42,843 nt of DNA from an uncultured Bacilli bacterium (GCA_944358165.1 CALVQS010000002.1:1-42843), one strand, 5' to 3'; shown: positions 13,700 through 40,969, counted from the first letter of the stretch. Numbers and translations are program-made. The notes: generated by a model from the sequence alone, not told the origin.

Positions 13700-13721
13700 A
13701 CAGTAAGTTCTGTCTTTTTTT
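13698..13721 (+). terminator. intrinsic terminator after dusB
   Basis: agacag / ctgtct stem, 6-nt loop, 6-7 T; overlaps the dusB stop codon. Confidence 0.8.
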
Positions 13722-13812
13722 GTCGCTAAAAATAAAATTTGTGCCCATTCACACTACCATCTATTTACATAAGGAAAAATATATGTTATATCCAAACAAA
13801 GGGGGACATAGC

Positions 13813-14716
13813 ATGAACGAAGAAAAATACTATGAAGAAATAAAACACTTAATTAAGAAAAATGAAATAGGAAAAAGAGCAAGAAAAATTGCAGAAAATA
13901 ATGATCTAGTAACAACTTACTGGAATATAGGAAGACTAATCATAGAAGCACAAGGAGGTGAAAGAAGGGCAAAGTATGGAAATGAATTAATCAAAAAATG
14001 GTTAATAAAGCTAACAGAACTTTATGGTAAAGGATATGATGCAACTAATTTACGTAAATTTAGGCAATTTTATTTGTGCTTTCAAAAATGCGCCACAGTG
14101 TGGCGCAAATTAAACTAGAGTCAAATTAAAAGAATATTACCAATCAAAGAAGAAAATAAACGTAATTACTATATTAATTTATGTATTAAAATCAATTTAT
14201 CAGAAAGAAAATTAAAGCAAGAAATAAAATCAAACTCTTATGAACGTTTAATAAATAAACCAGATAAAATAGAAATTATAGAACCAATTAAATATTCTAT
14301 TACAAGTGATATGAAAAATCCAATATTCATTCCTACAGATAAAGAAATTAAAACAGAAGACGAATTAGAATTAAGTATTCTTGCCAATTTAGATTATTTC
14401 TTTTAAACAACTAGGAGAAGGATTTACATTTGTAGGTCATCAATACAAAATTGATAATTATTATATAGATATTTTACTATTTAATTATAAGTTAAATTGC
14501 TTTATTGCAGTAGAATTAAAACTTAGGAGCCTAAAAAAAGAAGATAAAGCCCAAATAGAATTTTATATGAATTTAGTAGATGAAAATTTAAAAGAAAGCC
14601 ATCATAACAAAACCATAGGAATTATTATTACAAAGGAAAGTAATGAATTAGTAATTAATTTTGTTAGAAGAGAAAACATTATTCCTCTATACTATAAATT
14701 AAAGGAGAACATATGA
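13813..14716 (+). pseudogene. DUF1016/YhcG-type PD-(D/E)XK nuclease-family gene, copy 1, disrupted
   Basis: Starts MNEEKYYEEIKHLIKK. There is an in-frame TAG at 14116-14118, and the same frame then continues (SQIKRILPIKEENKRNYYINLCIK...). An extra T in ttcttttaaac, compared with copy 2, shifts the frame before the C-terminal module (GHQYKIDNYYIDILLFNYKLNCFIAVELK). Confidence 0.8.
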
Positions 14717-15517
14717 ACGAAGAAAAATACTATGAAGAAATAAAACACTTAATTAAGAAAAATGAAATAGGAAAAAGAGCAAGAAAAATTGAAGAAAATA
14801 ACGATCTAGTAACAACCTACTGGAATATAGGAAAGCTAATTGTTGAAGCCCAAGGAGGCGAGGCTAGAGCCAAGTACGGAAATGAACTAATCAAGAAATG
14901 GTCTGCAAAATTAACTGAAACCTATGGGAAAGGGTATAACTATACAAATTTATCACGATTTAGAAAATTTTACTTAATGTTTCCAATACTTGCGACAGTG
15001 TCGCAAGTATCTTGGTCCATAATATCGGTTTTATTACCTACAAAAGATATTAACAAACGTAATTATTATATAAATCTTTGTATTAAAAATAATTTGTCAG
15101 TAAGGGAATTAAAGCAAGAAATAAAATCAAACTCTTATGAACGTTTAATAAATAAACCAGATAAAATAGAAATTTCTTGCCAATTTAGATTATTTCTTTA
15201 AACAACTAGGAGAAGGCTTTTTATATGCTGGACATCAATATAAAATTGATAATTATTATATAGATATTTTGCTATTTAATTATAAGTTAAATTGTTTTAT
15301 TGTTGTAGAACTAAAACTTAGAAGTCTAAAAAAAGAAGATAAAGCTCAAATAGAATTTTACATGAATTTAGTAGATGAAAAACTAAAAGATAGCCATCAC
15401 AACAAAACCATAGGAATTATTATTACAAAAGAAAGTAATGAATTAGTAATTAATTTTGTTAGAAGAGAAGGCATTATTCCTCTATACTATAAATTGAAAA
15501 AGACCGTTTATAATTAA
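14713..15517 (+). pseudogene. DUF1016/YhcG-type PD-(D/E)XK nuclease-family gene, copy 2, disrupted
   Basis: Same N-terminus as copy 1. It lacks about 101 nt present in copy 1 (junction gaaatt|tcttgcc), which shifts the frame (ORF ends at 15201). The C-terminal nuclease module survives as the separate 15269..15517 ORF. Confidence 0.8.
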
Positions 15518-15556
15518 CTGTGTTCTTTTCATTTACACAGTTAATTATAAACGGTC
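15502..15556. repeat. perfect 21-bp inverted repeat (gaccgtttataattaactgtg / cacagttaattataaacggtc) with a 13-nt loop
   Basis: Read directly; includes the stop codon of DUF1016 copy 2; no T-run follows. Confidence 0.85.
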
Positions 15557-15630
15557 AGACTAATCTATGGGAAACCAGAATAGATAATATTGATGCTTTA
15601 AATCTTGTGTTTAAAGCTGAAACAATATTG

Positions 15631-15658
15631 GAATAGAGCATTTTCTCTATTCTTTTTT
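15631..15658 (+). terminator. intrinsic terminator (plus strand)
   Basis: 8-bp stem gaatagag / ctctattc, 6-nt loop, 6 T. Confidence 0.8.
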
Positions 15659-15671
15659 ACTATAAATTTAT

Positions 15672-15701: not shown

Positions 15702-17075
15702 TTATTTTTCCTCGCCTAAAAGAATTTTAGCAACTTTATTAACTGGTCCAGCCCCGATCGTTAAAATTAAATCATCTTTTTTAACGTGTTCTTTTAAATA
15801 CCCAGCAATTTCTGGATAAGTAGGAATATGTACAACATTTGGATTATTTTTAGCAATTAAACTTACTAAATCATCTTCCTTAACATTCCAAATATTTGTT
15901 TCTCTAGCTGGATAAATATCACATATAATTACATGATCAAATTTACTAAAAACATTGGCAAATTCTTGTAAATGTTCATAAGTTCTACTGTAAGTATGCG
16001 ATTGAAATACAGCCCAAACTTCATGATGCTTTATGGATTGACTAGAGTGATAAGTAGACATAATTTCCGTAGGGTGATGAGCAAAATCATCAAAGATAAA
16101 AGATCCGTGATACTTGCCAAGATATTCAAATCTTCTACCAACACCTGTAAATTCTTTTAAAGCTTTTTTTATAGTTTCTACATCAATCTGATAATTCATA
16201 CACATAAGAATAGTAGCAAGAGCATTCATAACGTTATGTTCTCCCAAAACACTTAAAGTAAAAGTATCCAAATATTTATCATTAAGATAAGCATCAAAAG
16301 TAGGGAATCCCAAATCAGAATAAGAAATATTTTTAGCTACTAAATTAGCAGGATTTTTAATTCCATAAGTAAGAGTATGTCTAGGGAATTTTAAATCACG
16401 AACATTCTCATCATCATTATTAACTACCAAATAACCATTGCTAGGTAACAAATCGATATATTTTTGAAAAGATTTTTTAGTATTTTCTACAGTTTTAAAA
16501 TAATCTAAATGATCATCATCAATATTTAAAATAATTTCACTAGTAGGATGAAAATGCAAGAAAGAATCGACATATTCACAAGCTTCCAAAATAAAATATT
16601 TTTTACCACCAATATAATAATTACCATGAATTTTCTTTAAAGAAGCTCCAATATTAATAGTTGGATTAAGATTAGCTTCTAAAAATACAGATGCTACCAT
16701 ACTAGTAGTTGTACTTTTCCCGTGGGTTCCGCTAATACAGATTAAGTTTTCATATTGTTTTGTATATTCTCCTAAAAATAAAGCTCTCTCAACACATTCG
16801 ATATTGTTTTCTTCGGCACAAACAAGTTCTACATCATCTTTACTAATCGCCACAGTATATATAACCAAATCAGCTTTTTTCACAGCATCAAGATCATGAC
16901 CAATTACAACAGGAATACCAATACTTTTTAAATATTCAGTATTTTCTGATTCTTGCATATCACTACCTGTAACGGTTTTACCATCATATTTAAGCATTGC
17001 TGCAATCGAATACATACTCGCTCCACCAATACCAATTAAATGTACATTTTGATAATCTTCAATATCTTTTTTCAT
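15702..17075 (-). CDS. murC: UDP-N-acetylmuramate--L-alanine ligase
   Basis: 457 aa; N-terminal GIGGASMYS Rossmann motif; Mur ligase P-loop GTHGKSTTT. Confidence 0.95.
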   Translation of the reverse strand: MKKDIEDYQNVHLIGIGGASMYSIAAMLKYDGKTVTGSDMQESENTEYLKSIGIPVVIGHDLDAVKKADLVIYTVAISKDDVELVCAEENNIECVERALFLGEYTKQYENLICISGTHGKSTTTSMVASVFLEANLNPTINIGASLKKIHGNYYIGGKKYFILEACEYVDSFLHFHPTSEIILNIDDDHLDYFKTVENTKKSFQKYIDLLPSNGYLVVNNDDENVRDLKFPRHTLTYGIKNPANLVAKNISYSDLGFPTFDAYLNDKYLDTFTLSVLGEHNVMNALATILMCMNYQIDVETIKKALKEFTGVGRRFEYLGKYHGSFIFDDFAHHPTEIMSTYHSSQSIKHHEVWAVFQSHTYSRTYEHLQEFANVFSKFDHVIICDIYPARETNIWNVKEDDLVSLIAKNNPNVVHIPTYPEIAGYLKEHVKKDDLILTIGAGPVNKVAKILLGEEK

Positions 17076-17227: not shown

Positions 17228-18403
17228 ATGAATGTTAAAAAAAGTGTAAATTTGTGTTTATTAATGCTTTTTGTGTTTTTAAGTTTCATCAGCACTAGTA
17301 ATGCTCAATCTGAATATATCAAAATTTGCGAATATAATCATACTTATAATAGCACTACTACTATTTTTGGTGGTACTGTTACAGCTGCTAATAAAGTTGG
17401 TATTTATTACAATACTTTAAATAAAAAATATTATGTATACTCTCAATATATGTTAAGCAATTCCAACAGTGTTAATGATAGACGACCAGTACAATATATG
17501 GGAAATAATAATGTTTATATTCAATCAAATCAAATAGATGAAGATTCAGTTGTATGTCCAACATACGGATATTATAATCATAAAAGCAGCACATCTGACA
17601 AATTTTGCTTTGCCAATGATACAAGCTATTGCAGTAGTCGTGGAACTGATACAGATTTTAGCGGAGAAAATAATAAAATATATGACATAAATACAAAGTT
17701 AAAAAGTTATCTATCTGGATATTCTTATGATTTTAATATATCAAGTGATCCTTCTGAACTTGCAAATTACAAATTTTCAGATTTTGAAAACGCCATAACG
17801 AATGAAATAAATACTTACATTTTAAATGGGTTTGATGTAGAAATTAACGAATGGACACAAACTACCGAAAAATTAGACCAAGTATATGATTTTATTAAAA
17901 ATACATCAGCTTACAAAGAAAAAGTTCTTTCTGAAACAACAAAAGTAAAAAATGAATTAGATAGTAAAATCAACTCAGCTCTTGAAGATCCCAATACAAC
18001 TGAGGAAGAAAAAAATAATATGGAGCAAAGTCAACAACAGTTTGGTGATGATTTAGAAAAGTATGAATCAGAAGCAAATAAAGTAGAAGGAATTGAAGTA
18101 GAGATACCTGATGATGATACTTGCACTTCTTATTTAGGAGATTATAAAATTAGTGGCACACCAGCATGGTATTTGCATCAATTATTTAACATTATTAAAT
18201 ATGGAGCTATTGTCTTATGTTTAGTATTAACAATTATTGAATATGTTAAAGCTGCAACATCACAAGACGATAGTGCAATAAAAAAAGCATCACAAAAAAC
18301 ATTAAAAAGAGTAATAATCACTATAATTTTATTCTTAGCACCAACTTTAATTGAGTTTATTTTAGAATTGCTAGGTATCACAGGTTCTTGTGTATTAAAT
18401 TAA
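17228..18403 (+). CDS. secreted Cys-containing protein with a C-terminal two-helix pilin-like (VirB2-like) membrane hairpin
   Basis: 391 aa; signal peptide ending SNA|QSE; Cys-containing N-domain; acidic helical linker; C-terminal TM - charged loop (KAATSQDDSAIKKASQKTLKR) - TM; AGGAGG RBS. Confidence 0.6.
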   Translation: MNVKKSVNLCLLMLFVFLSFISTSNAQSEYIKICEYNHTYNSTTTIFGGTVTAANKVGIYYNTLNKKYYVYSQYMLSNSNSVNDRRPVQYMGNNNVYIQSNQIDEDSVVCPTYGYYNHKSSTSDKFCFANDTSYCSSRGTDTDFSGENNKIYDINTKLKSYLSGYSYDFNISSDPSELANYKFSDFENAITNEINTYILNGFDVEINEWTQTTEKLDQVYDFIKNTSAYKEKVLSETTKVKNELDSKINSALEDPNTTEEEKNNMEQSQQQFGDDLEKYESEANKVEGIEVEIPDDDTCTSYLGDYKISGTPAWYLHQLFNIIKYGAIVLCLVLTIIEYVKAATSQDDSAIKKASQKTLKRVIITIILFLAPTLIEFILELLGITGSCVLN

Positions 18404-18475
18404 AGTGAAAACCTTTTTTTGAATTTAATTTAATGATATAATAAATTTAGATAAATAGAAATATTTGGAGGGCAT

Positions 18476-19351
18476 ATGAAAAAAGCACTATATATAATCA
18501 TTACTTTTATCGCCAGTACATCATTTTTAAATATAGCAAATGCAGCTGTATGTACATATCAAAACCAAAGTGACAGATATGGAACTGTGCAATATGTTTG
18601 TAATGTTACAAGTAATGATGTGGATTGTGATTTTAGATACGGAGGAGCTATTAATTCTAGTTCTATTAAAGATACAGGATTGGATTTAAATATTGAATAT
18701 AATGATTTTTTGAATAGTGATAATGTTATTGATTGTAGTGAAGTTCCAAATTTATTTTTAGATCAATATACTAACAAAAGTAATGCCATTGTCGTTTTAG
18801 GAGTTTCAAAAGAGAGAGTTTGTGAAGAACACCAATCAGCTTACGAAAATGGTTTAGTAATGGATGGAACTTATTCGGAAGATTGCACCATTTATACACT
18901 TGTTAATAATACTCCAGATGATGATGGTGATAGTGGGTCTTTAGAAGGCGTTGGAGGAGAAATTGACGAAGGAGTAGAAACACTAGATAATTTTTGTAGT
19001 GGGACTGTTTTAGGAGCGTTTACTACAATAGGCTGGATTATTTTCTTTTTAAAAATTGTTATTCCAATCATAATTATTGTGTTTGGTGTAATAGATTTAG
19101 GAAAAGCAATTATTGCCAGTAAAGATGATGAAATAAAAAAATCAATAAAATCGTTAGTTTTTCGTGCTATTGCTGGTATAATCATCTTTTTCATACCAAC
19201 AATCTTAAATTTTGTTATCCAATTAGTAGATAATAATAGTGAAACTTCGCTTAATGCGAATGGAGATTTTAAAAATGATGGTAGTTTTCTAGATTGTACT
19301 TATTGTTTATTAAATCCAAATGAAGATGAATGTAGAAAATTAGTAGAATAA
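18476..19351 (+). CDS. secreted Cys-rich protein with a C-terminal two-helix pilin-like membrane hairpin (paralogous in architecture to 17228..18403)
   Basis: 291 aa; signal peptide ending ANA|AVC; many Cys; C-terminal TM - loop (GKAIIASKDDEIKKSIKSLVFR) - TM, then a Cys-containing tail; GGAGGG RBS. Confidence 0.6.
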   Translation: MKKALYIIITFIASTSFLNIANAAVCTYQNQSDRYGTVQYVCNVTSNDVDCDFRYGGAINSSSIKDTGLDLNIEYNDFLNSDNVIDCSEVPNLFLDQYTNKSNAIVVLGVSKERVCEEHQSAYENGLVMDGTYSEDCTIYTLVNNTPDDDGDSGSLEGVGGEIDEGVETLDNFCSGTVLGAFTTIGWIIFFLKIVIPIIIIVFGVIDLGKAIIASKDDEIKKSIKSLVFRAIAGIIIFFIPTILNFVIQLVDNNSETSLNANGDFKNDGSFLDCTYCLLNPNEDECRKLVE

Positions 19352-19379
19352 TTAAATACTTTTGTAGGAGGTAAAACAA

Positions 19380-21530
19380 ATGGATATATTTGAAATAATT
19401 CAAGAAGCATTATTATGGATTTGCCTTATGATTGATAGTGCTGTTTATTCTTTTATTGGATATGTATATCAAATTATTTTAGTGTTAGCACGTATTAATG
19501 TCTTTGATGATACATCAGTAATAGATGGCCTAGTTAATCGAGTATATATAATTATTGGTGTAGTAATGCTATTTGTTCTTGCATATTCACTACTAAAAGG
19601 ATTGATTAATCCAGATGAAGCATTAAAAGGTAAAAATTCACCACCAAAAATTATCTTCAATATTATTATTTCGATTGTATTAATTGCTTTTGTACCAACA
19701 ATATTTAATATTGCTACTGGTTTTCAAAATGCAATATTAGAACAAGGAACCCTAACAGGAATTATAATTGGTTCAGATGGTTCATCAGATAGCGCTCAAT
19801 CAATTGAAGATGGTGGCTTTAATATTGCAGCAGGAGTATTTCAAGCTTTTTTCCATCCGAAAGTTGAAACGGAAGAAGGGGTAAGATATTGTCAATATTT
19901 TGTAAATAGTAATCCTGGAAATGATGATATAACAACAACAGAGGTGAATGATACAGATTGTACGGAATTTACATTTTCTAATGGCCTTACTTATTCAGAA
20001 TTTTGGCAAGCAATGAAAAGTGCAAATTCATTTGAATTACTCCCTAGCATAAATACAGATATTATTGGTAATATCGATTATACATGGATAATCTCAACGA
20101 TAGCAGGAGCATTTGTAGTATTTGTATTAATAAGTTACTGTATTGAAATAGCAATACGAGCTTTAAAGTTAGCTGCTTTTCAATTAATTGCACCAATTCC
20201 TATACTTGCTAGAATTATTCCAGGAGAACAAGGTAACAAAGTTTTTAGCAATTGGATTAAAGCTTGCTTATCAACTTATTTGGAAGTATTTATTAGATTA
20301 GGAATTTTATTTTTCATAATCGTTATGATATCTGCTTTGCAAAGAAATATAGGAGGAATATTTGCTACTTTTGAAACAGAATCTGGAAGTTTAGGAATAG
20401 CATTTTTAGCATGGGCCTTCCTAATAATTGGTTTAATATTTTTTGTAAAAGACTTCCCAAATATCCTAAAAGAAGTAACTGGTTTAGATAGTGGAAAATA
20501 TGGAAAAGCTGTTGTAAGAGGTTTAGGAATGATGGGGGCTACATTTGGTGGTGGAGCAACCTCTGCTATCCGAAGAACTGTAGCTGATAAAAAGGAGCAC
20601 CCGGAAATGGGTAAAGGCCAAAGAGTTGCCAGAACTTTAAGTGCTTTAGGTGGAGGTATGAAAAGAGGCTTATGGCAAGGAGGAAAAGTAGAAAAAATTA
20701 ATGATATTCCTAAATATGCTGGAAAAGCAGCTACTGCAACTCTAGGACATCGAGCAGATATGGATGCTGCTATAGCATCAGCAGGTGGAAATAAACTTAA
20801 AGGAACAATAGAATATTATGAACAAAAAAGAAAAAATGTTGCTACTAATGTAGGTGCATGGGCTAGTGGAAGTTTTGAAGCTCAACAACAAATGTTAAAT
20901 GAAATAAATGAATTTTTAAAAGATGCGAAGTCTGTTAAGTCGGAATCAGAAGGAATAGTTAGAGATAAAAAATACTTATTTACAATGGGCCAAAGAACAT
21001 ATCGCTATGGAGTAAATAACAATAAAACTCTTAACGTTAATTCATCCACTTCATTAAGTGAAATTGAAGCAATAATTGAAACGTTAAAATCTTCTGGAAA
21101 TATTGAAGATGCACAATTTGCAGATAAATTAAATAATGACTTACAATTAAGAATCAAAGATATTGGTAAAGAATTATCAAAATCTTCAGTTGAAATATCA
21201 TCAACCAATGATGATAGCACTCGCCAAAATATAAGCAATAATTTTTCTGCACAATTTATGACACCAACTTCAAAAGGATTAATTGGAGAAATTTCACCAT
21301 CAATAGCAAAAATAAATTCTGCTTATGAAATAGTTAATAGAAAAGCAAAAGAAAACTCTTCATTAGATGCAGTAATAAATTTCAAAAAAGAAAAAGGAGA
21401 TTTATCTCCAGACAATGTTTCAGCATTAGCTGATCAATTAGAAATTTCTTCAGCAGAAATTCAACAAAACATTAAATTAGAACAAGAACGTAGAAAAGCA
21501 GCAAACCCAAAAGGCGGAAAGGATAAATAA
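19380..21530 (+). CDS. polytopic membrane protein, TrbL/VirB6-like, with a long hydrophilic C-terminal extension
   Basis: 716 aa; several hydrophobic helices in the first roughly 380 aa, including AFQLIAPIPILARIIPG; the C-terminal roughly 330 aa is hydrophilic and Gly/Lys/Ala-rich; position in a VirB4-containing cluster. Confidence 0.55.
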   Translation: MDIFEIIQEALLWICLMIDSAVYSFIGYVYQIILVLARINVFDDTSVIDGLVNRVYIIIGVVMLFVLAYSLLKGLINPDEALKGKNSPPKIIFNIIISIVLIAFVPTIFNIATGFQNAILEQGTLTGIIIGSDGSSDSAQSIEDGGFNIAAGVFQAFFHPKVETEEGVRYCQYFVNSNPGNDDITTTEVNDTDCTEFTFSNGLTYSEFWQAMKSANSFELLPSINTDIIGNIDYTWIISTIAGAFVVFVLISYCIEIAIRALKLAAFQLIAPIPILARIIPGEQGNKVFSNWIKACLSTYLEVFIRLGILFFIIVMISALQRNIGGIFATFETESGSLGIAFLAWAFLIIGLIFFVKDFPNILKEVTGLDSGKYGKAVVRGLGMMGATFGGGATSAIRRTVADKKEHPEMGKGQRVARTLSALGGGMKRGLWQGGKVEKINDIPKYAGKAATATLGHRADMDAAIASAGGNKLKGTIEYYEQKRKNVATNVGAWASGSFEAQQQMLNEINEFLKDAKSVKSESEGIVRDKKYLFTMGQRTYRYGVNNNKTLNVNSSTSLSEIEAIIETLKSSGNIEDAQFADKLNNDLQLRIKDIGKELSKSSVEISSTNDDSTRQNISNNFSAQFMTPTSKGLIGEISPSIAKINSAYEIVNRKAKENSSLDAVINFKKEKGDLSPDNVSALADQLEISSAEIQQNIKLEQERRKAANPKGGKDK

Positions 21531-22096
21531 TGTTTAGATTAGAAAAATTGAAAAACTGGGCTCATAGCAGTGTAGCAGATGATAAGAAAGAATTAAATGT
21601 ATATCAAAGTTTTCAAGACCAATTTTTAGCTATAAATAGCAAAATAGATGATTATTTAAACGAGAAAAGCTATGAAGATGAAAGAATACAAGTTGATTAT
21701 AATGGAAAAAAAATACCTATAAATTTATTAAAAACATTAAGTCAATCAATTTTAAGCAATAAAGATTTAACAACAATTCAAAAAGCACAAAAAAGCGCTG
21801 AACTAACTAAATTATATTATGAAAAACTAAAACAACTAAGAGAAAAAATAATCACTTTAGCAGTTACAGAAAAAGATAATGTATATCTAGTATATATAAA
21901 TAGTTGTATTCAAATAATAAATTCTTTACTAAACGAATATTCATATTTATTAGCAATTCAAAGATCTTCTATCTATCAAATTGATAATCAAGGTGAGCTA
22001 AATGCTGGTGAAAAATTAAAAGTATTAAAAGATAATATTGAAATCAGAACAGCTGAAATAAATAGTCGCTTAGCGTTGGATAGATTAAAAAGATAA
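21530..22096 (+). CDS. hypothetical helical (coiled-coil-like) cytoplasmic protein, translationally coupled to the VirB6-like gene
   Basis: 188 aa with no hydrophobic helix; TAATG stop/start overlap with the upstream ORF. Confidence 0.6.
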   Translation: MFRLEKLKNWAHSSVADDKKELNVYQSFQDQFLAINSKIDDYLNEKSYEDERIQVDYNGKKIPINLLKTLSQSILSNKDLTTIQKAQKSAELTKLYYEKLKQLREKIITLAVTEKDNVYLVYINSCIQIINSLLNEYSYLLAIQRSSIYQIDNQGELNAGEKLKVLKDNIEIRTAEINSRLALDRLKR

Positions 22097-22237
22097 CAAA
22101 TTTATAATCTTATCAAATTACAGAAATTCAACAAATAAAGAATCAATGATGGTTCTTTTTTGTTTTTTATTGAAATATACTACCCCTTTAAAAATAAATA
22201 TGATATAATAATTAAGTAAAATTAGGAGGTAAGTAGT

Positions 22238-22546
22238 GTGAAGAATTATTTAATTCCTGCTAACTCTAAAAAATCGCAATTAATATTAGGATTTTTTAGA
22301 GGGATAGACTTAATATTATTTGGATTTGGAGTTGGAATAACATTAATATTACTATTAGCAATACAAAGTGCAAACATGGGAGTTATGATATTAATACTTG
22401 CTCCAGCATTAATTACAGGTTTTTTAGTGATGCCTGTGCCAAATTATCATAATGTATTACAATTTATAGTAAATATATATACCTATTTAAGTGAAAGAAG
22501 AAGATATTATTGGAAAGGATGGTGCTATGATGTCGAAGAAGAGTAA
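22238..22546 (+). CDS. small two-TM protein, PrgI/VirB3-like
   Basis: 102 aa; GTG start behind AGGAGG; two hydrophobic helices, then a basic tail (SERRRYYWKGW); lies directly upstream of the VirB4 gene, as in Gram-positive T4SS loci. Confidence 0.55.
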   Translation: MKNYLIPANSKKSQLILGFFRGIDLILFGFGVGITLILLLAIQSANMGVMILILAPALITGFLVMPVPNYHNVLQFIVNIYTYLSERRRYYWKGWCYDVEEE

Positions 22547-23081
22547 TTCTCCATTTACAGAAGATTGGTTACCAATGAAACAAATTTTAAATGGAATGAT
22601 ACAATTAGATACCGGCGAATATGTAACAGGAGTAAAAGTACATCCTAGAAATATTTTTATTGTCGATCAAGGACTTCAAAATGCCATTATTGGCAATTTA
22701 AGAAATTTTTATAATTCAATTAGTTTTGAATTTTGGCTAATTATTGCAGATCGTCCTGTAGATATAGGTTTATATTTATCTAATTTACAAATTCTTTACA
22801 ACAATACTGATAGTCCAATTCAAAGAAAATTAATTATGGAAGATATCAAAAAAGCAAATATGTTTATGAGTGCAGAATATAATGTTGTGGATACAGAGTA
22901 TTTTATTTTATTTAAAGAAAAAAGAATGGAATTAGTTCAAAAGAATTTACACACATTAATTAGTGGCCTTGCCAATTCTGGCCTTAATTCCAATCAAGTA
23001 TCAAATGACGATTTAAGAATGATTTTAGACAATTTCTTAAATGGTGGTGTTCATACAACATTTGGGACGGTGATGAGCTAA
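22527..23081 (+). CDS. VirB4-family ATPase, N-terminal domain encoded as a separate ORF
   Basis: About 184 aa from ATG 22527 (AAGGA RBS; overlaps the end of the previous ORF); WLPMKQILNGMIQLDTGEYVTGVKVHPRNIF resembles the N-terminus of Tn916 Orf16/PrgJ-type VirB4 proteins (from memory). Confidence 0.6.
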   Translation: MMSKKSNSPFTEDWLPMKQILNGMIQLDTGEYVTGVKVHPRNIFIVDQGLQNAIIGNLRNFYNSISFEFWLIIADRPVDIGLYLSNLQILYNNTDSPIQRKLIMEDIKKANMFMSAEYNVVDTEYFILFKEKRMELVQKNLHTLISGLANSGLNSNQVSNDDLRMILDNFLNGGVHTTFGTVMS

Positions 23082-24868
23082 TGGCAAAGATAAAAAGTGA
23101 AATAGCTCCAAAAGGAATGGAGTTTAAACCAACGGAGTTTACTTTAGGTGGTAAATATTGTACCATCATGACAATTATTTCTTATCCAAAAAGTATTTAT
23201 GTTGGTTATTTATCAGATATTACGAGTATCAGTGGAGTAAAAGTAGCAATCAAACACATTCCAATTGAATTTAGTACACTTCAAAAAATGTTAAACAAAG
23301 AAATTGCTGACTTAAAAATGCGTTATCAAAATGAAAGAGATAAAACCATTCAAGAAAGAATTCGCCAAGACTATGAATCATTAGAGCAATTTATTTCAAT
23401 GCTTGCCGCAACTCAAGCAAGAATCTTTGATTTTCAAATGCATATCATGATTAGTGCGGATAGTAAAGAAGAATTAGATTTAAAGAAAATGCAAGTAAGA
23501 ACTTATCTAGATGCTTTAGGTATGAGAGGAATTTCCTTGATGTTTGAACAAGAAAAAGTTTTAAAATCAATAATTCCTATTTTTCCAAAGCAAGATATTG
23601 AAAATAGAATTGGAACCCCAATACCATCTGTTACAGTTGCAGCTATGTATCCTTTTGTTTTTGATAGCATCAAAGATCCTGGAGATGCCACACTTTTTGG
23701 TGTAGATTTCTCTGGTGGTGTTGTTTTATTTAATCAATTCTTATATCAAATCAAAAAAGAAAGTAATAGGAACAATGCCAATATGATTTTACTAGGTACC
23801 AGTGGTTCTGGTAAATCAACTGCAGCAAAACTATTACTTAGAACTCATCTTCGAAATGGATGCAAAGTAGTATGCATTGATCCAGAAGGCGAGCTAGAAG
23901 AAATGGCTCATTCCTTAGGTGGAGATTTCCTAGATTTAGGAAAAGGTGGCGACTTTGGAATGATTAATCCATTAGAAGTAGTAGTGGATGCCGATGAAGA
24001 AGAAATAGCCCAAGGTCTAGGATATACAATTTTAACAAGAACATTGCAACAATTAAAAGCCTTCATGAAATATTTATATCCAGATATTGAAGAAGACGTA
24101 CTAACCATGTTTAGTGAAATTGTTCAAGATACTTACAAAAGATATAAAATAGATTTTGATACGGATTTTACGAAAATAACAAGCGCTGATTATCCAACAT
24201 TTGATGATGTTTATGCAACGATTAAAGGAAGACTTTTATCAATGCCAGATGCAACCCGTGAAAAAGATGTAATTGAACGTTTAGAGTTAAAGATCAGACC
24301 ATTAACCAAAGAACTAAGATATTATTTTACTGGTCATACCACTCTTAGATTTAATAGTGATTTTATTGTATTTAATATAAGAGAATTAATGAACAGTGAT
24401 GAAAATATTAAAAACACATTATTCTTTAATATTTTAAAATATGCATGGGGACTTACTCTTGATAAAAATGTAAATACCGTTATGATGGTTGATGAAGCTC
24501 ACGTATTATTATCAAGTAGAAATGAACTTGGTGCAGAGTTCCTTGCCCAAATTCAAAGACGTTCTAGAAAATACAATACAGGTACTATTATTATTACTCA
24601 ACAACCAACCGATTTTGCTGCTCCAAACATGATTGTTCATGGAAAAGCAATCTTTGATAATGCATCTTACTATTTAGTAATGGGACTTCGTAAACAAGCA
24701 GTAGAAGATTTAGCAAAATTAATTGACTTAAATGAATCAGAAAAAGACAGTATTAAATATTATAATCAAGGAGAAGCTTTATTCATATGTGGTAACAGAA
24801 GAATGAGAATTAGTATTATAGTTACTCAAGAAGAATTAGACTCCTTTGGTTCTGGAGGAGGATTATAA
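23081..24868 (+). CDS. VirB4-family conjugation/T4SS ATPase, C-terminal ATPase part
   Basis: 595 aa; Walker A LLGTSGSGKST; DPEGE motif; Walker B VMMVDEAHVLL; RSRKYNTGTIIITQQPTDF; TAATG overlap with the preceding ORF. Confidence 0.85.
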   Translation: MAKIKSEIAPKGMEFKPTEFTLGGKYCTIMTIISYPKSIYVGYLSDITSISGVKVAIKHIPIEFSTLQKMLNKEIADLKMRYQNERDKTIQERIRQDYESLEQFISMLAATQARIFDFQMHIMISADSKEELDLKKMQVRTYLDALGMRGISLMFEQEKVLKSIIPIFPKQDIENRIGTPIPSVTVAAMYPFVFDSIKDPGDATLFGVDFSGGVVLFNQFLYQIKKESNRNNANMILLGTSGSGKSTAAKLLLRTHLRNGCKVVCIDPEGELEEMAHSLGGDFLDLGKGGDFGMINPLEVVVDADEEEIAQGLGYTILTRTLQQLKAFMKYLYPDIEEDVLTMFSEIVQDTYKRYKIDFDTDFTKITSADYPTFDDVYATIKGRLLSMPDATREKDVIERLELKIRPLTKELRYYFTGHTTLRFNSDFIVFNIRELMNSDENIKNTLFFNILKYAWGLTLDKNVNTVMMVDEAHVLLSSRNELGAEFLAQIQRRSRKYNTGTIIITQQPTDFAAPNMIVHGKAIFDNASYYLVMGLRKQAVEDLAKLIDLNESEKDSIKYYNQGEALFICGNRRMRISIIVTQEELDSFGSGGGL

Positions 24869-24879
24869 TCCTCTTTTTT
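24858..24879 (+). terminator. intrinsic terminator after the VirB4 gene
   Basis: Palindrome gaggattataatcctc enclosing the stop codon, followed by 6 T. Confidence 0.75.
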
Positions 24880-25165: not shown

Positions 25166-25960
25166 TTGATAAGAGCTTATTCTAATCCAGAAAATCCAGC
25201 AAATGTAATTATACATTGGATGAGTAATAAAGGAACTTTTGATTATATAGGATTATGGGAACAATTAAATAATGAAAATTTTAATTTCACGGAATTCAGT
25301 GAAATTAAAAATAACGAAGTTGGATATCCCTCATTTACTTTAAGCCCAAAGAGATGGATTGGAAGAACTAATGCTATTGGAATATATTCAAAAGGAGGAA
25401 AATATAGCATTGGAACATTTGCTCATCCTGATATAGCATTTGAATTTGCTAGTTGGTTAAGCCCAGAATTTAAGTTATATTTAATCAAAGAATTCGAAAG
25501 ATTAAAGAAAAATGAAGCATATCAAGAAAAGTTAGAATGGCATGCTAATCGTCTTTTGTCTAAGACAAACTATATAATTCATACTGAAGCAGTTAAAAAT
25601 TATATTGTTCCAATACTAACTGAAAAGCAAAAGAAATTTGTATATGCCGAAGAAGCTGATGTATTAAATGTTGCTTTATTTGGTATGACTGCTAAAGAAT
25701 GGAGAGAAAATAATCCTGAACTTGCTGAAAATGATAATATAAGAGATTATACTGATTTACTTCATCTAGTAATATTAAATAATTTAGAAAATTCTAATGC
25801 TGAATTTATAAAATTAGGCATCAGCCAAAGTGAAAGATTAGTAAAATTAAACGATTATGCTAGAAATCAAATGGAAGTATTAAAAAATAATCATGGAATA
25901 AAAGAATTTGAAATATTACACAAACAAATAAATGAAAATGATAAATATTTAATTCGATAA
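25166..25960 (+). pseudogene. KilA-N domain protein gene, 5'-truncated
   Basis: GTFAHPDIAFEFASWLSPEFKLYLIKEFERLK and the rest match the KilA-N family well, but the usual roughly 25-35 N-terminal residues are missing. The frame opens only at a TTG with no RBS, and an in-frame TAA lies just upstream. Confidence 0.65.
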
Positions 25961-26179
25961 AAACTATTATTTACAACTCATAATTAATTAAATTCTATAG
26001 ATAATAACTTTACCTAAGCAATTATTTTTAACTGTTATTAATTTTATCTGTTTATAAAAAGCTTTTTATTTACCAACGTTTGTCTTGATAATTAGTGCTA
26101 ATTTTATAAACGAATTTTGCAACATTTTTCTTAAAATAAAGACTTTTCGTTATAAATTTGGTAAAATAAAATTGGTTAA

Positions 26180-26311
26180 TCTAAAATAAGTGACATGTCT
26201 CCGTATAACTTCAACAACGGTTGGGCTAACGTGTTCGTTGTGAATTCGAATGGCAACCTCGACTGGAACAACGTGAATAACACGAATGGTGTGCGCCCAA
26301 TATCCTTTTAA
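26180..26311 (+). other. orphan, locally GC-richer, AAC/AAT-rich 3' gene fragment resembling a DGR variable/template repeat (DUF1566/Lcl-like C-terminus)
   Basis: Translates as ..MSPYNFNNGWANVFVVNSNGNLDWNNVNNTNGVRPISF*; 13 Asn codons in about 100 nt; a stop codon lies just upstream, so no full gene is attached. Confidence 0.3.
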
Positions 26312-26430
26312 ACTTAATATTTGGTCAAGGCTAAATAAAAAAGCATTAGGATACAAGATTAGCCATAGGTTCAGCCTAAATATTTAATATTGATATTTTA
26401 AATCTAGTATTTAAAATTGCAACAATATTG

Positions 26431-26456
26431 GACAGAGCTTTCTCTGTCTTTTTTTT
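26431..26456 (+). terminator. intrinsic terminator (plus strand) with no intact gene upstream
   Basis: gacagag / ctctgtc stem, 4-nt loop, 8 T. Confidence 0.75.
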
Positions 26457-26462
26457 ACAAGT

Positions 26463-26493: not shown

Positions 26494-27555
26494 TTATGGT
26501 CCCGTAGGTCCAGTAGGTCCGGTAGGTCCTGTTGCACCTGTAGGTCCAGTTGGACCAGTTGCTCCTTCGGCACCTTGTGGTCCGGTAGGTCCGGTAGGTC
26601 CAGTAGCACCAGTTGTTCCGGCAGTACCTTGTGGTCCGGTAGGCCCAGTAGGCCCTGTTGCCCCAGTAGCACCAGCTGTTCCGGCAGTACCTTGTGGTCC
26701 GGTAGGTCCGGTAGGTCCTGTTGCTCCAACAGTACCAGCTGTTCCGGCAGTACCTTGTGGTCCAGTAGGTCCGGTAGGTCCTGTTGCCCCAGTAGCACCA
26801 GTTGTTCCGGCAGTACCTTGTGGTCCAGTAGGTCCGGTAGGTCCTGTTGCTCCAACAGTACCAGCTGTTCCAGCAGTACCTTGTGGTCCCGTAGGTCCGG
26901 TAGGTCCTGTTGCTCCAACAGTACCAGCTGTTCCAGCAGTACCTTGTGGTCCCGTAGGTCCTGTAGCACCTGTTGGTCCGGTTGAACCAGTAGGACCAGT
27001 AGCACCAGATGGTCCAGTAACTCCTTGAGGAATCGTTAAATTAAGGAAGAAATTTGGAGCAGTTCCTGTGATTGATGCAGTAGCAGTTGATCCAGGAGCT
27101 CCAGTAGTTACAGTTCCTATATTTAAAGTTGGAGTAGCTGATGTACCAGCAGGACCGGTAGCTCCAGTAGCTCCAGTAGCTCCAGTAGGCCCCGTTGCTC
27201 CGGTTGGTCCAGTTGGTCCTGTTACACCAGCACTACCAGTAGGTCCTGTTGCACCGGTTGGTCCGATACTTCCAGGAGTTCCTGCAGGTCCAGTAGCACC
27301 AGTAGGCCCAGTAGGCCCAGTAGCTCCAGCTGGAATAGAGAATGCAAGTACTGCATTTGAAGAAGTACCTGTATTAATGACACTTGCAGCCGTACCAGGA
27401 TCTGTAGTGGTTGTAGTACTTACGGTTATCGTTGCAGCAGCAGGCCCAGTAGGTCCAGTAGGTCCCGTTGGACCAAAGCAGCAGCAGCTAGGATTAGGAT
27501 GATTTTTATTATAGCAATCGATATATGCCTGAGCACGCTCTAAATTATTATTCAC
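26494..27555 (-). CDS. collagen-like (Gly-X-Thr) repeat surface protein, BclA-like in style
   Basis: 353 aa; GTG start behind AGGAGA; N-terminus [27 protein letters not shown], then long GPT/GAT triplet runs. Two roughly 35-aa non-collagen inserts end in AFSIPAG and LNLTIPQG. The protein ends inside the repeats (..[11 protein letters not shown]). Confidence 0.85.
26573..26960. repeat. in-frame tandem repeats inside the collagen-like gene, period 63 bp (one 54-bp unit)
   Basis: The motif ccttgtgg recurs at 26573, 26627, 26690, 26753, 26816, 26879 and 26942; the unit encodes [21 protein letters not shown] variants. Confidence 0.9.
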
Positions 27556-40568: not shown

Positions 40569-40675
40569 AGCACCTCAAATTTCAACTTTATTGTACAAGA
40601 TTTATAAAATTGATTTAAGGTACTTGCGTACCCTGATTTATAAGATATAATAATACTAAGTAAAGGGTAGTGTAT

Positions 40676-40969
40676 ATGAAAAAAAGAGTAATTATATTAA
40701 TAATTAGTTTAATAGCTATAACCGGAATAATTGTAGGAGTAAGTTATGCGTTTTTCTCGACCGGTGGAATGCAGGAGGCAGCAAATACATTTCAAAGTGG
40801 ATGCTTAAATATTTCTTTAACAGATGCATCATCATCGATTAATCTAAGTAATATTTATCCAGTAACAGACATTGAAGGATTAGATGGAACAAGTTATGAT
40901 TTTACAATTAAAAATACTTGTAGTACAGATGCAAATTATCAAATTAACTTAGAAAGTATTCAAGTATAG
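40676..40969 (+). CDS. small secreted protein with a SipW-dependent (TasA/camelysin-type) signal peptide
   Basis: MKKRVIILIISLIAITGIIVGVSYAFFSTGGMQEAANTFQSGCLNISL resembles the TasA-type leader (..YAYFSD....NTF..G.L.L); only about 97 aa long; start set at ATG 40676. Confidence 0.6.
   Translation: MKKRVIILIISLIAITGIIVGVSYAFFSTGGMQEAANTFQSGCLNISLTDASSSINLSNIYPVTDIEGLDGTSYDFTIKNTCSTDANYQINLESIQV

Follow-up and report, generated by a model that had tools for sequence, protein, structure and literature searches.

Type IV secretion systems (T4SS) that have been domesticated from MPF-FATA machinery, lack a relaxase and combine pilin arrays with TrsD were described in 2025 for the Patescibacteria. 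Their loci encode arrays of VirB2-like pilins together with VirB6, PrgI/VirB3, TrsD and VirB4, and the type IV coupling protein (T4CP) is distant (PMC12102498). Ca. Southlakia epibionticum ML1, the one strain tested, cannot grow epibiotically without such a system, and co-option of monoderm conjugation systems has been proposed as the origin of the Patescibacteria machinery (Quinonero-Coronel et al. 2025, PMC12102498). In the MPF-FATA literature TrsD is a separate protein remotely homologous to the N-terminus of VirB4, and the pGO1 subclass has neither a VirB6 homologue nor pilin genes (PMC12102498). The second system of relevance is the integrative and conjugative element (ICE) of mycoplasmas, whose machinery supports oriT-independent chromosomal transfer and for which no relaxase gene is named (PMC6030558). 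Here we analyze a seven-gene T4SS-like locus at positions 17,228 to 24,868 of a 42,843-nucleotide stretch of DNA from an uncultured Bacilli bacterium (GCA_944358165.1, CALVQS010000002.1:1-42843), and compare it with these systems. The whole stretch is referred to as the window.

We estimate a probability of about 0.7 that this locus is the core of a vertically inherited, chromosomally fixed and domesticated T4SS of the monoderm MPF-FATA type, common to an order-level group of uncultured gut Bacilli with small genomes. Reading the open reading frames (ORFs) of the window confirmed seven co-oriented genes on the + strand at the coordinates given by the initial annotation. They encode two proteins with pilin-like hairpins (PIL1 and PIL2), a VirB6-like protein (B6), a 188-aa protein, a VirB3-like protein (B3) and a VirB4 distributed over two genes (B4N and B4C). 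The interpretation of the locus as the membrane, ATPase and pilin-like core of a T4SS is supported by the evidence that follows.

The protein B4C (23081..24868, +; 595 aa, 1-nt overlap with the B4N stop), which contains the middle and C-terminal ATPase domains, is identified by its sequence as a VirB4. Its translation carries the Walker A motif GTSGSGKS and the Walker B motif MMVDEAH, it matches the VirB4 C-terminal domain of PDB 4AG5 with an E value of 2.6e-57, and it exceeds the Pfam cut-offs for AAA_10 (50.2 bits, cut-off 27.5) and P-loop_TraG (46.8 bits, cut-off 25.8). The best NCBIfam family is VirB4_plasma (NF045975), the VirB4 of mycoplasma ICEs, at E 4.9e-106 over profile positions 294-891. 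Thus the resemblance to Mollicutes ICE transfer modules suggested by the initial annotation holds at the level of the ATPase. The score of 355.4 bits does not reach the equivalog cut-off of 590 bits, which belongs to a fused protein of ~894 aa; here homology to the fused mycoplasma VirB4 is spread over the three genes B3, B4N and B4C. All NCBIfam VirB4 families match B4C under their equivalog cut-offs, at E 5e-106 to 4e-24. The match to conju_CD1110 has an E value of 2e-51 and that to CedD is weak (E 3e-11).

The VirB4 N-domain gene B4N (22527..23081, +) overlaps the B3 gene. Its longest ORF spans 22491-23081 (196 aa), and the ATG at 22527 is the likely start, as judged from the N-termini of orthologues. 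B4N aligns to positions 97-276 of VirB4_plasma (E 9.4e-14) and B3 to positions 2-96 of the same profile, which represents a VirB3-VirB4 fusion. A hidden Markov model (HMM) of 80 B4N orthologues matches residues ~15-200 of 24 unsplit VirB4 homologues of 775-892 aa, with E values down to 4e-25, and the HMM of the B3 family matches the N-termini of two VirB4 proteins of 912 and 1159 aa. Thus the three genes are collinear with VirB3-VirB4 fusions, and B4N appears from its sequence to correspond to TrsD. B3 itself (22238..22546, +; 102 aa), whose GTG start is preceded at 8 nt by AGGAGG, is a VirB3/PrgI/TcpE-like protein with two transmembrane (TM) segments in a hydropathy scan. Its Pfam matches are to TcpE (21.7 bits, E 2.9e-4, cut-off 29.9) and PrgI (15.2 bits, E 0.033, cut-off 27).

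The split of VirB4 had been regarded initially as the exception in a set of otherwise intact ORFs. It turns out to be a conserved two-gene architecture. In all 80 related loci the junction between B4N and B4C consists of a stop codon and a new ATG, with differing frame offsets: a 4-nt overlap in 24 loci, a 1-nt overlap in 34 and a gap of 1-3 nt in 22. Such uniformity indicates that the split is ancestral, and the presence of a stop and a new ATG in 80/80 loci with three junction types rules out a frameshift or pseudogene. A different kind of interruption was seen at one locus of a 1.46-Mb closed metagenome-assembled genome (MAG) (L088, CP091726.1), where the B4N, B4C, SpoIID-type and T4CP genes are each broken into multiple short ORFs; this looks like indel errors of long-read assembly, not biology.

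The locus is widespread. Scanning one genome per GTDB species with B4C as the query identified it at 79-98% identity in at least 574 species genomes, and the same gene set in so many species places the cluster far beyond chance. The genomes are recorded as uncultured Bacilli, Tenericutes, Mycoplasmatota and Erysipelotrichaceae, for example Firmicutes bacterium CAG:460; Mycoplasma sp. CAG:776 and Candidatus Caccenecus, the latter classified as Bacilli incertae sedis in the NCBI taxonomy, are among those with T4CP loci. The record titles and GTDB taxonomy suggest that the VirB4-bearing genomes belong to the order RF39, and we refer to them as RF39-like. According to the literature, RF39 is an order without any cultured member, has auxotrophies and reduced genomes, and occurs commonly in the guts of humans and animals (PMC9606305, PMC12306168). 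Within the literature library searched, no paper linked RF39 to VirB4, T4SS or conjugation.

Gene order was compared by clustering the ORFs of 80 loci with their 10-kb flanks. The closest relatives of the window, referred to as group A, are 15 sister MAGs (L001-L014 and L079). B3, B4N and B4C are all present in 80/80 loci. Outside group A, upstream sequence of at least 5 kb is available for 53 loci; B6 lies upstream in every one of them and PIL genes in 51, with 1-7 PIL copies per locus. Four group-A loci (L007, L008, L011 and L013) have no PIL or B6 beside B3.

Comparison of the window with group A reveals very different rates of change along the locus. B4C is 92-98% identical with a ratio of nonsynonymous to synonymous divergence (dN/dS) of 0.02-0.06, B4N is 83-96% identical (dN/dS 0.03-0.14) and B3 is 74-90% identical (dN/dS 0.06-0.28). 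For murC of the same loci, the values are 71-84% and 0.12-0.28; VirB4 is therefore more constrained than murC at similar dS. Within group A, dS ranges from 0.6 to 1.3 and is similar for T4SS and housekeeping genes, so that the high identity of VirB4 reflects constraint and not recent transfer. VirB4 identity also correlates over all loci with the identity of neighbouring genes (Spearman rho 0.77 for VTT, 0.77 for RmuC and 0.98 for UppP). Recent horizontal spread as the source of the 96-98% VirB4 identity is ruled out by a dS of ~1, which is no lower than that of murC, and by this covariation with housekeeping neighbours. The initial view of a maintained rather than decaying locus is thus borne out by the dN/dS of VirB4. 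In the same species pairs PIL1 and PIL2 are only 23-43% identical and B6 37-52%, divergences too high for a meaningful dN/dS. The exposed parts (PIL and B6) are hypervariable, and purifying selection on the ATPase part is very strong. Among 1.84e9 representative proteins, the next relatives of VirB4 form two tiny clusters at 45-47% identity, and all others are at 35% or less; a genome scan with a representative of the 45% level (P0003) found no locus.

The two PIL proteins share a signal-like N-terminal segment and a C-terminal TM pair in the hydropathy scan. PIL1 (17228..18403, +; 391 aa) consists of a signal peptide, a fast-evolving ectodomain of ~290 aa and a VirB2-like two-helix hairpin at the C-terminus (aa 313-386), with TM segments at 3-27, 316-334 and 357-386. 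PIL2 (18476..19351, +; 291 aa) has a signal peptide, a beta-rich ectodomain, a disordered acidic linker, a helical hairpin and a Cys-rich tail. Its AlphaFold2 (AF2) model, with a mean predicted local distance difference test score (pLDDT) of 78.8, places the ectodomain at aa 24-147 and antiparallel helices at 177-214 and 217-251; Foldseek returned no PDB match with E<0.5 for this model. PIL1 matches Pfam T4SS_pilin (PF18895) with 15.7 bits (E 0.016), under the cut-off of 26.6, and PIL2 does not match it. Both proteins are recognized by an HMM of the short pilins from related loci, PIL1 at E 2.2e-20 and PIL2 at E 1.3e-31. The family was sampled with 176 members from 63 loci, all of which share the hairpin module, C-terminal in 174. 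When 148 of them were scanned against Pfam, 44 matched PF18895 (best E 1.4e-6) and three the CagC pilin family. PIL proteins also weakly match the ICE transmembrane families MMCAP2_0566 and Mbov_0396 of NCBIfam.

The region in front of the hairpin is variable in this family. PIL1 has only four homologues in 5.8e9 proteins, and PIL2 about 45 full-length orthologues at 34-74% identity. Lengths are bimodal, about 110-170 aa and about 270-470 aa; the window contains two long PILs and no short one. Some long members carry ectodomains of hydrolases that act on peptidoglycan or on other substrates, namely Amidase_3 (4), Peptidase_C39_2 (4), Peptidase_M15_4 (2), Peptidase_M23 (1) and a VgrG3-like C-terminal domain (1). 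The terminal hairpin was verified in two M15-bearing members, and a glucosaminidase-bearing relative was seen as well. From their sequences and the PIL2 model, the PILs are predicted to be Sec-exported surface proteins with variable ectodomains anchored by a VirB2-like hairpin.

Two other gene groups were observed near the PIL arrays. In 17 of the 53 loci a type IV pilus (T4P)/ComG-like cluster lies directly upstream of the array (L076 1-4287, L040 128-3490, L078, L080 and L069; also L011 7033-8235). It includes small pilin-like genes and consists of a T2SSE ATPase (E 5e-124), two membrane proteins, a ~330-aa protein, two ~80-aa proteins starting with MKEATGELNMT and two ~165-aa paralogues; apart from the ATPase, none of its genes matches Pfam or NCBIfam. 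A second family, C14, comprises proteins of 370-670 aa that share a conserved WTMSP..GVRPVINL..GSGT..DPY segment at the C-terminus, have either a TM segment or a TasA-like 'YAYF' signal at the N-terminus, and do not match Pfam. C14 genes are interleaved with pilin-hairpin genes in many loci and follow the T4CP-rhodanese pair in the window's clade (L017 2979-4100; L040 4034-5164; L211 13727-16776; L228 13250-16706); the window has an N-terminal fragment at 40670-40969. C14 is possibly an additional surface component of the T4SS.

B6 (19380..21530, +; 716 aa) combines a conserved N-terminal part of ~370 aa, with six TM segments in the hydropathy scan, with a variable helical C-terminal part of ~350 aa. 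The window protein itself has no TrbL match at E<0.01. Among 59 homologues, 12 match Pfam TrbL/VirB6, seven match TrbL_4 and eight possess a pilin-like N-terminal hairpin; the window protein matches NCBIfam pLS20_p028 weakly (E 4e-5). The AF2 model of B6 has a mean pLDDT of 81.8 and its top Foldseek match in the PDB is TrwI/VirB6 of R388 (8rt9_F), with a probability of 0.94, a target-normalised TM score of 0.43 and an E value of 0.19. This fold match is suggestive of a VirB6-like channel protein; the sequence profile of the B6 family produced only noise against PDB sequences. The window proteins' own matches to the VirB3, VirB6 and pilin profiles fall under the cut-offs, and these putative assignments of the initial annotation draw their support from family members and structural evidence.

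The gene that follows B6 (21530..22096, +), with a 1-nt overlap with its stop, encodes a soluble helical accessory protein of 188 aa that has no TM segment and no match in Pfam or NCBIfam. By tblastn it has a homologue in only four of the 80 loci. Most loci have no gene between B6 and B3, and others have unrelated ORFs of similar size at this place. The 188-aa protein, initially counted as a coupled helical component of the module, is not a conserved component. A terminator-like hairpin with a U-run lies downstream of it at 22137..22168 (+; -11.1 kcal/mol, z -3.5), and a comparable structure spans the VirB4 stop codon at 24853..24879 (+; -14.8 kcal/mol, z -3.5). These two putative terminators suggest two transcription units. 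A promoter scan of the AT-rich window showed no enrichment relative to shuffles.

No T4CP is encoded in the 42.8-kb window. A SpoIID-type hydrolase and a lipoprotein are also missing from the window and were not located in its clade. Other clades have all three: of the 43 loci outside group A whose sequence continues for 7 kb or more downstream, 35 have after B4C a membrane protein with a SpoIID domain (500-1000 aa, weak CD1108 match), a lipoprotein or TM protein (~230-300 aa) and a VirD4 T4CP. The T4CP is ~740 aa long and matches Pfam T4SS-DNA_transf (E 2e-55) and NCBIfam conju_CD1115 (296 bits, cut-off 250). Genes for rhodanese, VTT/DedA, RmuC and UppP follow.

In the window's own clade the T4CP was searched with a DNA pattern for the invariant motif TNFILDEFxNMP and then with the recovered group-A T4CP as the query. 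It was found on a second contig of the group-A MAG CANUCD01, the MAG of L002, whose VirB4 is 96% identical to that of the window. An intact T4CP of 718-880 aa is present off the VirB4 contig in nine of the 15 group-A MAGs (CANUCD, CALVQM, CALVHJ, CANRPK, CASEOP, CANQBY, CANRIB, CANQMC and CANOGG); locus L004, from the MAG CALVHJ, shares with the window the synteny from murC to a collagen-like gene. In about 28 species the relocated gene has the context uppS, a TM protein of 151/186 aa, T4CP and rhodanese. The relocated proteins have kept Walker A, end in an invariant DDEFFDDFF and evolve with a dN/dS of 0.06-0.11 at dS ~1. This tail recalls the one with which F TraD binds TraM. The single-domain rhodanese of ~85 aa always stands after the T4CP, even after relocation (L201-L229, e.g. 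L201 2-3920; L076 14983-17659). The 151-aa protein preceding the relocated T4CP was considered as a shortened lipoprotein and rejected, as its HMM matched no other T4CP-upstream protein, including the LP9, LP16 and LP28 families. The relocated T4CP and the loci without PIL or B6 beside B3 point to a dispersal of T4SS genes that appears to be a trait of the window's clade. Thus the description of the module as orphan and minimal is accurate for the locus in the window and not for the system, which has a hydrolase, a lipoprotein and a T4CP in most loci of other clades and a relocated T4CP in this one.

Hallmarks of mobility are scarce. Pfam and NCBIfam detect no relaxase and no integrase in the window, in agreement with the initial annotation, which had also noted the missing T4CP and wall hydrolase. 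For related loci the relaxase search covered, with Pfam or NCBIfam, a subset of neighbours within about 10 kb of the T4SS genes. There was no relaxase among the recurrent neighbour families. The 94 singleton ORFs of 220 aa or more matched 116 families, and the best 25 of these include no relaxase either. Just three of 80 loci have a serine recombinase, beside LysM/SleB-type genes, and the locus is syntenic with housekeeping genes across relatives. Scans of the window for tRNA and Rfam families gave no match; without tRNA genes there is no tRNA-type integration site. A single flanking repeat was found, with 54-nt copies at 15579 and 26379; murC lies between them, and the repeat is part of a multi-copy element. 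With housekeeping flanks, no relaxase in the neighbourhoods covered and so few recombinases, the cluster is not located inside an ICE. Relatives with the same cluster in a complete ICE, the situation that the initial annotation saw as contradicting it, were not found: they have a T4CP, no relaxase and no ICE hallmarks.

The surroundings of the locus are mostly housekeeping genes: murC is the upstream neighbour (15702-17075, -), and the rest of the window includes ftsY, pyk, clpC, thyA, folA, dapF, murE, pduL, dus and PFOR. Downstream of VirB4 lies a truncated KilA-N domain ORF (25166-25960), which starts with TTG and is missing the first ~33 positions of the profile. A gene for a collagen-like protein of 353 aa with G-P-T/G-A-T triplet repeats follows at 26494-27555 (-) and accounts for a local GC peak of 0.44 (vs ~0.28); its homologues beside the T4SS locus of sister species differ in length and in the number of copies. 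What lies between VirB4 and the collagen-like gene changes from one sister species to the next (ORFs of 315, 115, 493 and 342 aa), which marks this position as a variable insertion spot. On the other side of murC, at 13720-15517, a gene for a DUF1016/YhcG-type nuclease has undergone duplication and fragmentation into three ORFs of 132, 162 and 82 aa; its direct repeats are 81-92% identical and 795-900 nt apart, and a perfect 22-nt inverted repeat at 15502-15556 comes after the fragments.

The multi-copy element mentioned above is ~280 nt long and occupies 26150-26460 (+) of the window, with a partial copy at 15579-15660. Further copies are found in L079 (2434-2714 and 11803-12086), L006 (three copies), L003, L008 and L001; between species with a gene dS of ~1 the copies are 80-86% identical. 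Sister species have one copy directly after the VirB4 stop and another close to the 3' end of murC, and in the window the element and VirB4 are separated by the KilA-N remnant. The element carries an Asn-rich ORF of 38 codons (26195-26311, MSPYNF...NTNGVRPISF) homologous to the C-terminal WTMSP...GVRPVINL segment of C14, and it has no Rfam match. Its copies differ mainly at NNY codons and resemble the template and variable repeats of a diversity-generating retroelement; this reading was rejected, as the fetched loci contain no reverse transcriptase motif and the differences are not strictly at adenines.

Among described systems, the Patescibacteria T4SS, compared here by its description in PMC12102498, shares with the RF39-like loci tandem divergent VirB2-like (PF18895) genes, VirB6, PrgI/VirB3, a separate TrsD and a VirB4 of ~600 aa. 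Both are chromosomal, lack a relaxase, can have an unlinked T4CP, are often located beside type IV pilus genes and belong to hosts with reduced genomes; the entire Patescibacteria-type parts list (chromosomal location, VirB4, TrsD-like, VirB3-like and VirB6-like proteins, a VirB2-like tandem and, in the neighbourhoods covered, no relaxase) is found here. The RF39-like hosts, however, are Bacillota, their T4CP is adjacent and strongly conserved in most clades, their wall hydrolase is SpoIID-type, and many of their PILs have ectodomains of 150-500 aa, some of them enzymatic. The mycoplasma ICE (MICE/ICEA, with CDS17 as VirB4, CDS5 as T4CP, and CDS16 and other TM proteins) is linked to the present locus by the NF045975 profile, by the collinearity of B3, B4N and B4C with its fused protein and by the weak PIL matches to Mbov_0396 and MMCAP2_0566. 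It differs in that the RF39-like locus lacks a DDE transposase and terminal inverted repeats, behaves neither as multi-copy nor as strain-variable, is vertically inherited and resides in a walled host. The Trs system of pGO1/pSK41 (TrsC-TrsD-TrsE, MPF-FATA), likewise compared by description and not by TrsD sequences, also has a separate TrsD between the VirB3-like and VirB4 genes (PMC12102498) but serves plasmid conjugation with a relaxase.

The nearest named relatives of VirB4 are 606-aa proteins of Thomasclavelia/Coprobacillus, with others in Solobacterium and on a "Mycoplasmatota" plasmid. In Thomasclavelia cocleata and T. ramosa (L280) VirB4 is ~34% identical and also split, and the T. cocleata locus follows the gene order of the RF39-like loci, with a 702-aa polytopic protein, proteins of 129 and 225 aa, the 606-aa VirB4 and then a wall hydrolase. 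Unlike the RF39-like loci, it has a primase, a serine recombinase, a single-stranded DNA-binding protein (SSB) and sortase-pilus adhesins; a pilin-hairpin array is absent, and its hydrolase is of the glucosaminidase and M15 type instead of the SpoIID type. SSB, primase and serine recombinase mark this ICE-type locus of the Erysipelotrichales as a mobile element, and exactly these mobility and DNA-processing genes are lacking in the RF39-like loci.

By analogy, the system would most likely exchange macromolecules with adjacent cells in a contact-dependent way, having been diverted from the self-transfer of a mobile element, because its parts list, divergent pilins, TrsD, missing relaxase and reduced-genome host match the Patescibacteria T4SS. 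In such a machine B3, B4N and B4C would form a membrane-anchored ATPase that powers the assembly of a translocon with B6 at its base. The Sec-exported PILs would insert via their hairpins and reach another cell through an external conduit or adhesin that they build or decorate, with peptidoglycan-hydrolase ectodomains on the hairpin proteins of some relatives. The unlinked T4CP would recruit cytoplasmic substrates into the channel, and variable targets, whether partner cells, host, immunity or phage, could exert the diversifying pressure on the PILs and the C-terminal half of B6. The substrate may be protein, DNA or both.

Several observations weigh against this interpretation. Six of the 15 group-A MAGs have no T4CP among the 80 loci listed, the link of the T4CP to the window's genome is indirect, via MAGs of sister species in which binning errors are possible, and a T4CP with the acidic-aromatic tail DDEFFDDFF is equally compatible with DNA transfer. 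The matches of the window's own PIL, B3 and B6 proteins to the T4SS_pilin, TcpE/PrgI and VirB6 models are under curated cut-offs, and the E value of the B6 fold match is high. Unconventional or distant relaxases may have escaped a search of the scope given above. A serious rival is a working DNA conjugation machine that exchanges chromosomal DNA, as in mycoplasma chromosomal transfer, with an unrecognised or distant relaxase or with none. We regard it as rather unlikely and yet serious because the T4CP is of the conjugative type, scoring above the CD1115 cut-off, and is conserved. The best VirB4 match to a mycoplasma-ICE family, the weak PIL matches to ICE families and the precedent of oriT-independent transfer by an ICE for which no relaxase gene is named (PMC6030558) speak in the same direction. 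The RF39-like loci, however, have no relaxase, SSB, primase or recombinase where the nearest mobile relative has the last three; a VirB4 constrained beyond housekeeping genes would be unusual for a facultative gene-exchange device, and highly diversified pilin arrays with wall-hydrolase ectodomains are atypical of Gram-positive conjugation (PMC12102498).

A device for DNA uptake (ComB/Ced-like) or release (as by the gonococcal genetic island of Neisseria) that feeds a nucleotide-poor reduced genome is improbable. It would suit the T2SSE-bearing T4P/ComG-like cluster upstream of the pilin array in 17/53 loci and the CedD match of VirB4, although that match is far weaker than those to conjugative VirB4 families. 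The ComB uptake system is not known to have a T4CP, whereas the T4CP here is conserved under selection. The small genomes with reported auxotrophies (PMC12306168) would fit uptake as well; in the Patescibacteria analogue, however, comEC is dispensable and the T4SS is essential (PMC12102498). We consider it most improbable of all that the locus is a decaying ICE remnant, a deletion derivative that has lost its T4CP, hydrolase, relaxase and integrase. The absence from the window of the hydrolase, lipoprotein and T4CP of other clades would agree with such a history, as would the truncated KilA-N gene and the duplicated DUF1016 fragments nearby; against it stand the intact ORFs, a dN/dS of 0.02-0.14 for the ATPase genes at dS ~1, the retention of the gene set across at least 574 species and of the T4CP elsewhere under selection, and the lack of ICE hallmarks in any clade examined.

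Compared with the Patescibacteria T4SS, the probably domesticated system of the RF39-like Bacilli adds a Bacillota host, a T4CP that is strongly conserved and in most cases adjacent, a hydrolase of the SpoIID type, and hairpins fused to large, sometimes peptidoglycan-hydrolytic ectodomains. It offers a comparison point outside the Candidate Phyla Radiation (CPR) for the domestication of conjugation systems. For annotation, the lesson is that neither a 'split VirB4' nor 'no T4CP nearby' necessarily means decay. A more far-reaching and doubtful idea is that RF39-like Bacilli are contact-dependent epibionts or parasites of other gut microbes, for which the T4SS would be an essential interface and the hypervariable PILs, some with fused peptidoglycan hydrolases, would recognise and breach the walls of partners, possibly with this group as the donor lineage of the CPR system. 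If true, this would be the first CPR-like T4SS-dependent lifestyle outside the Patescibacteria. With a VirB4 that is more conserved than murC, diversifying surface modules and a Patescibacteria-like architecture, the T4SS is a strong candidate for a core determinant of the lifestyle of RF39-like Bacilli.

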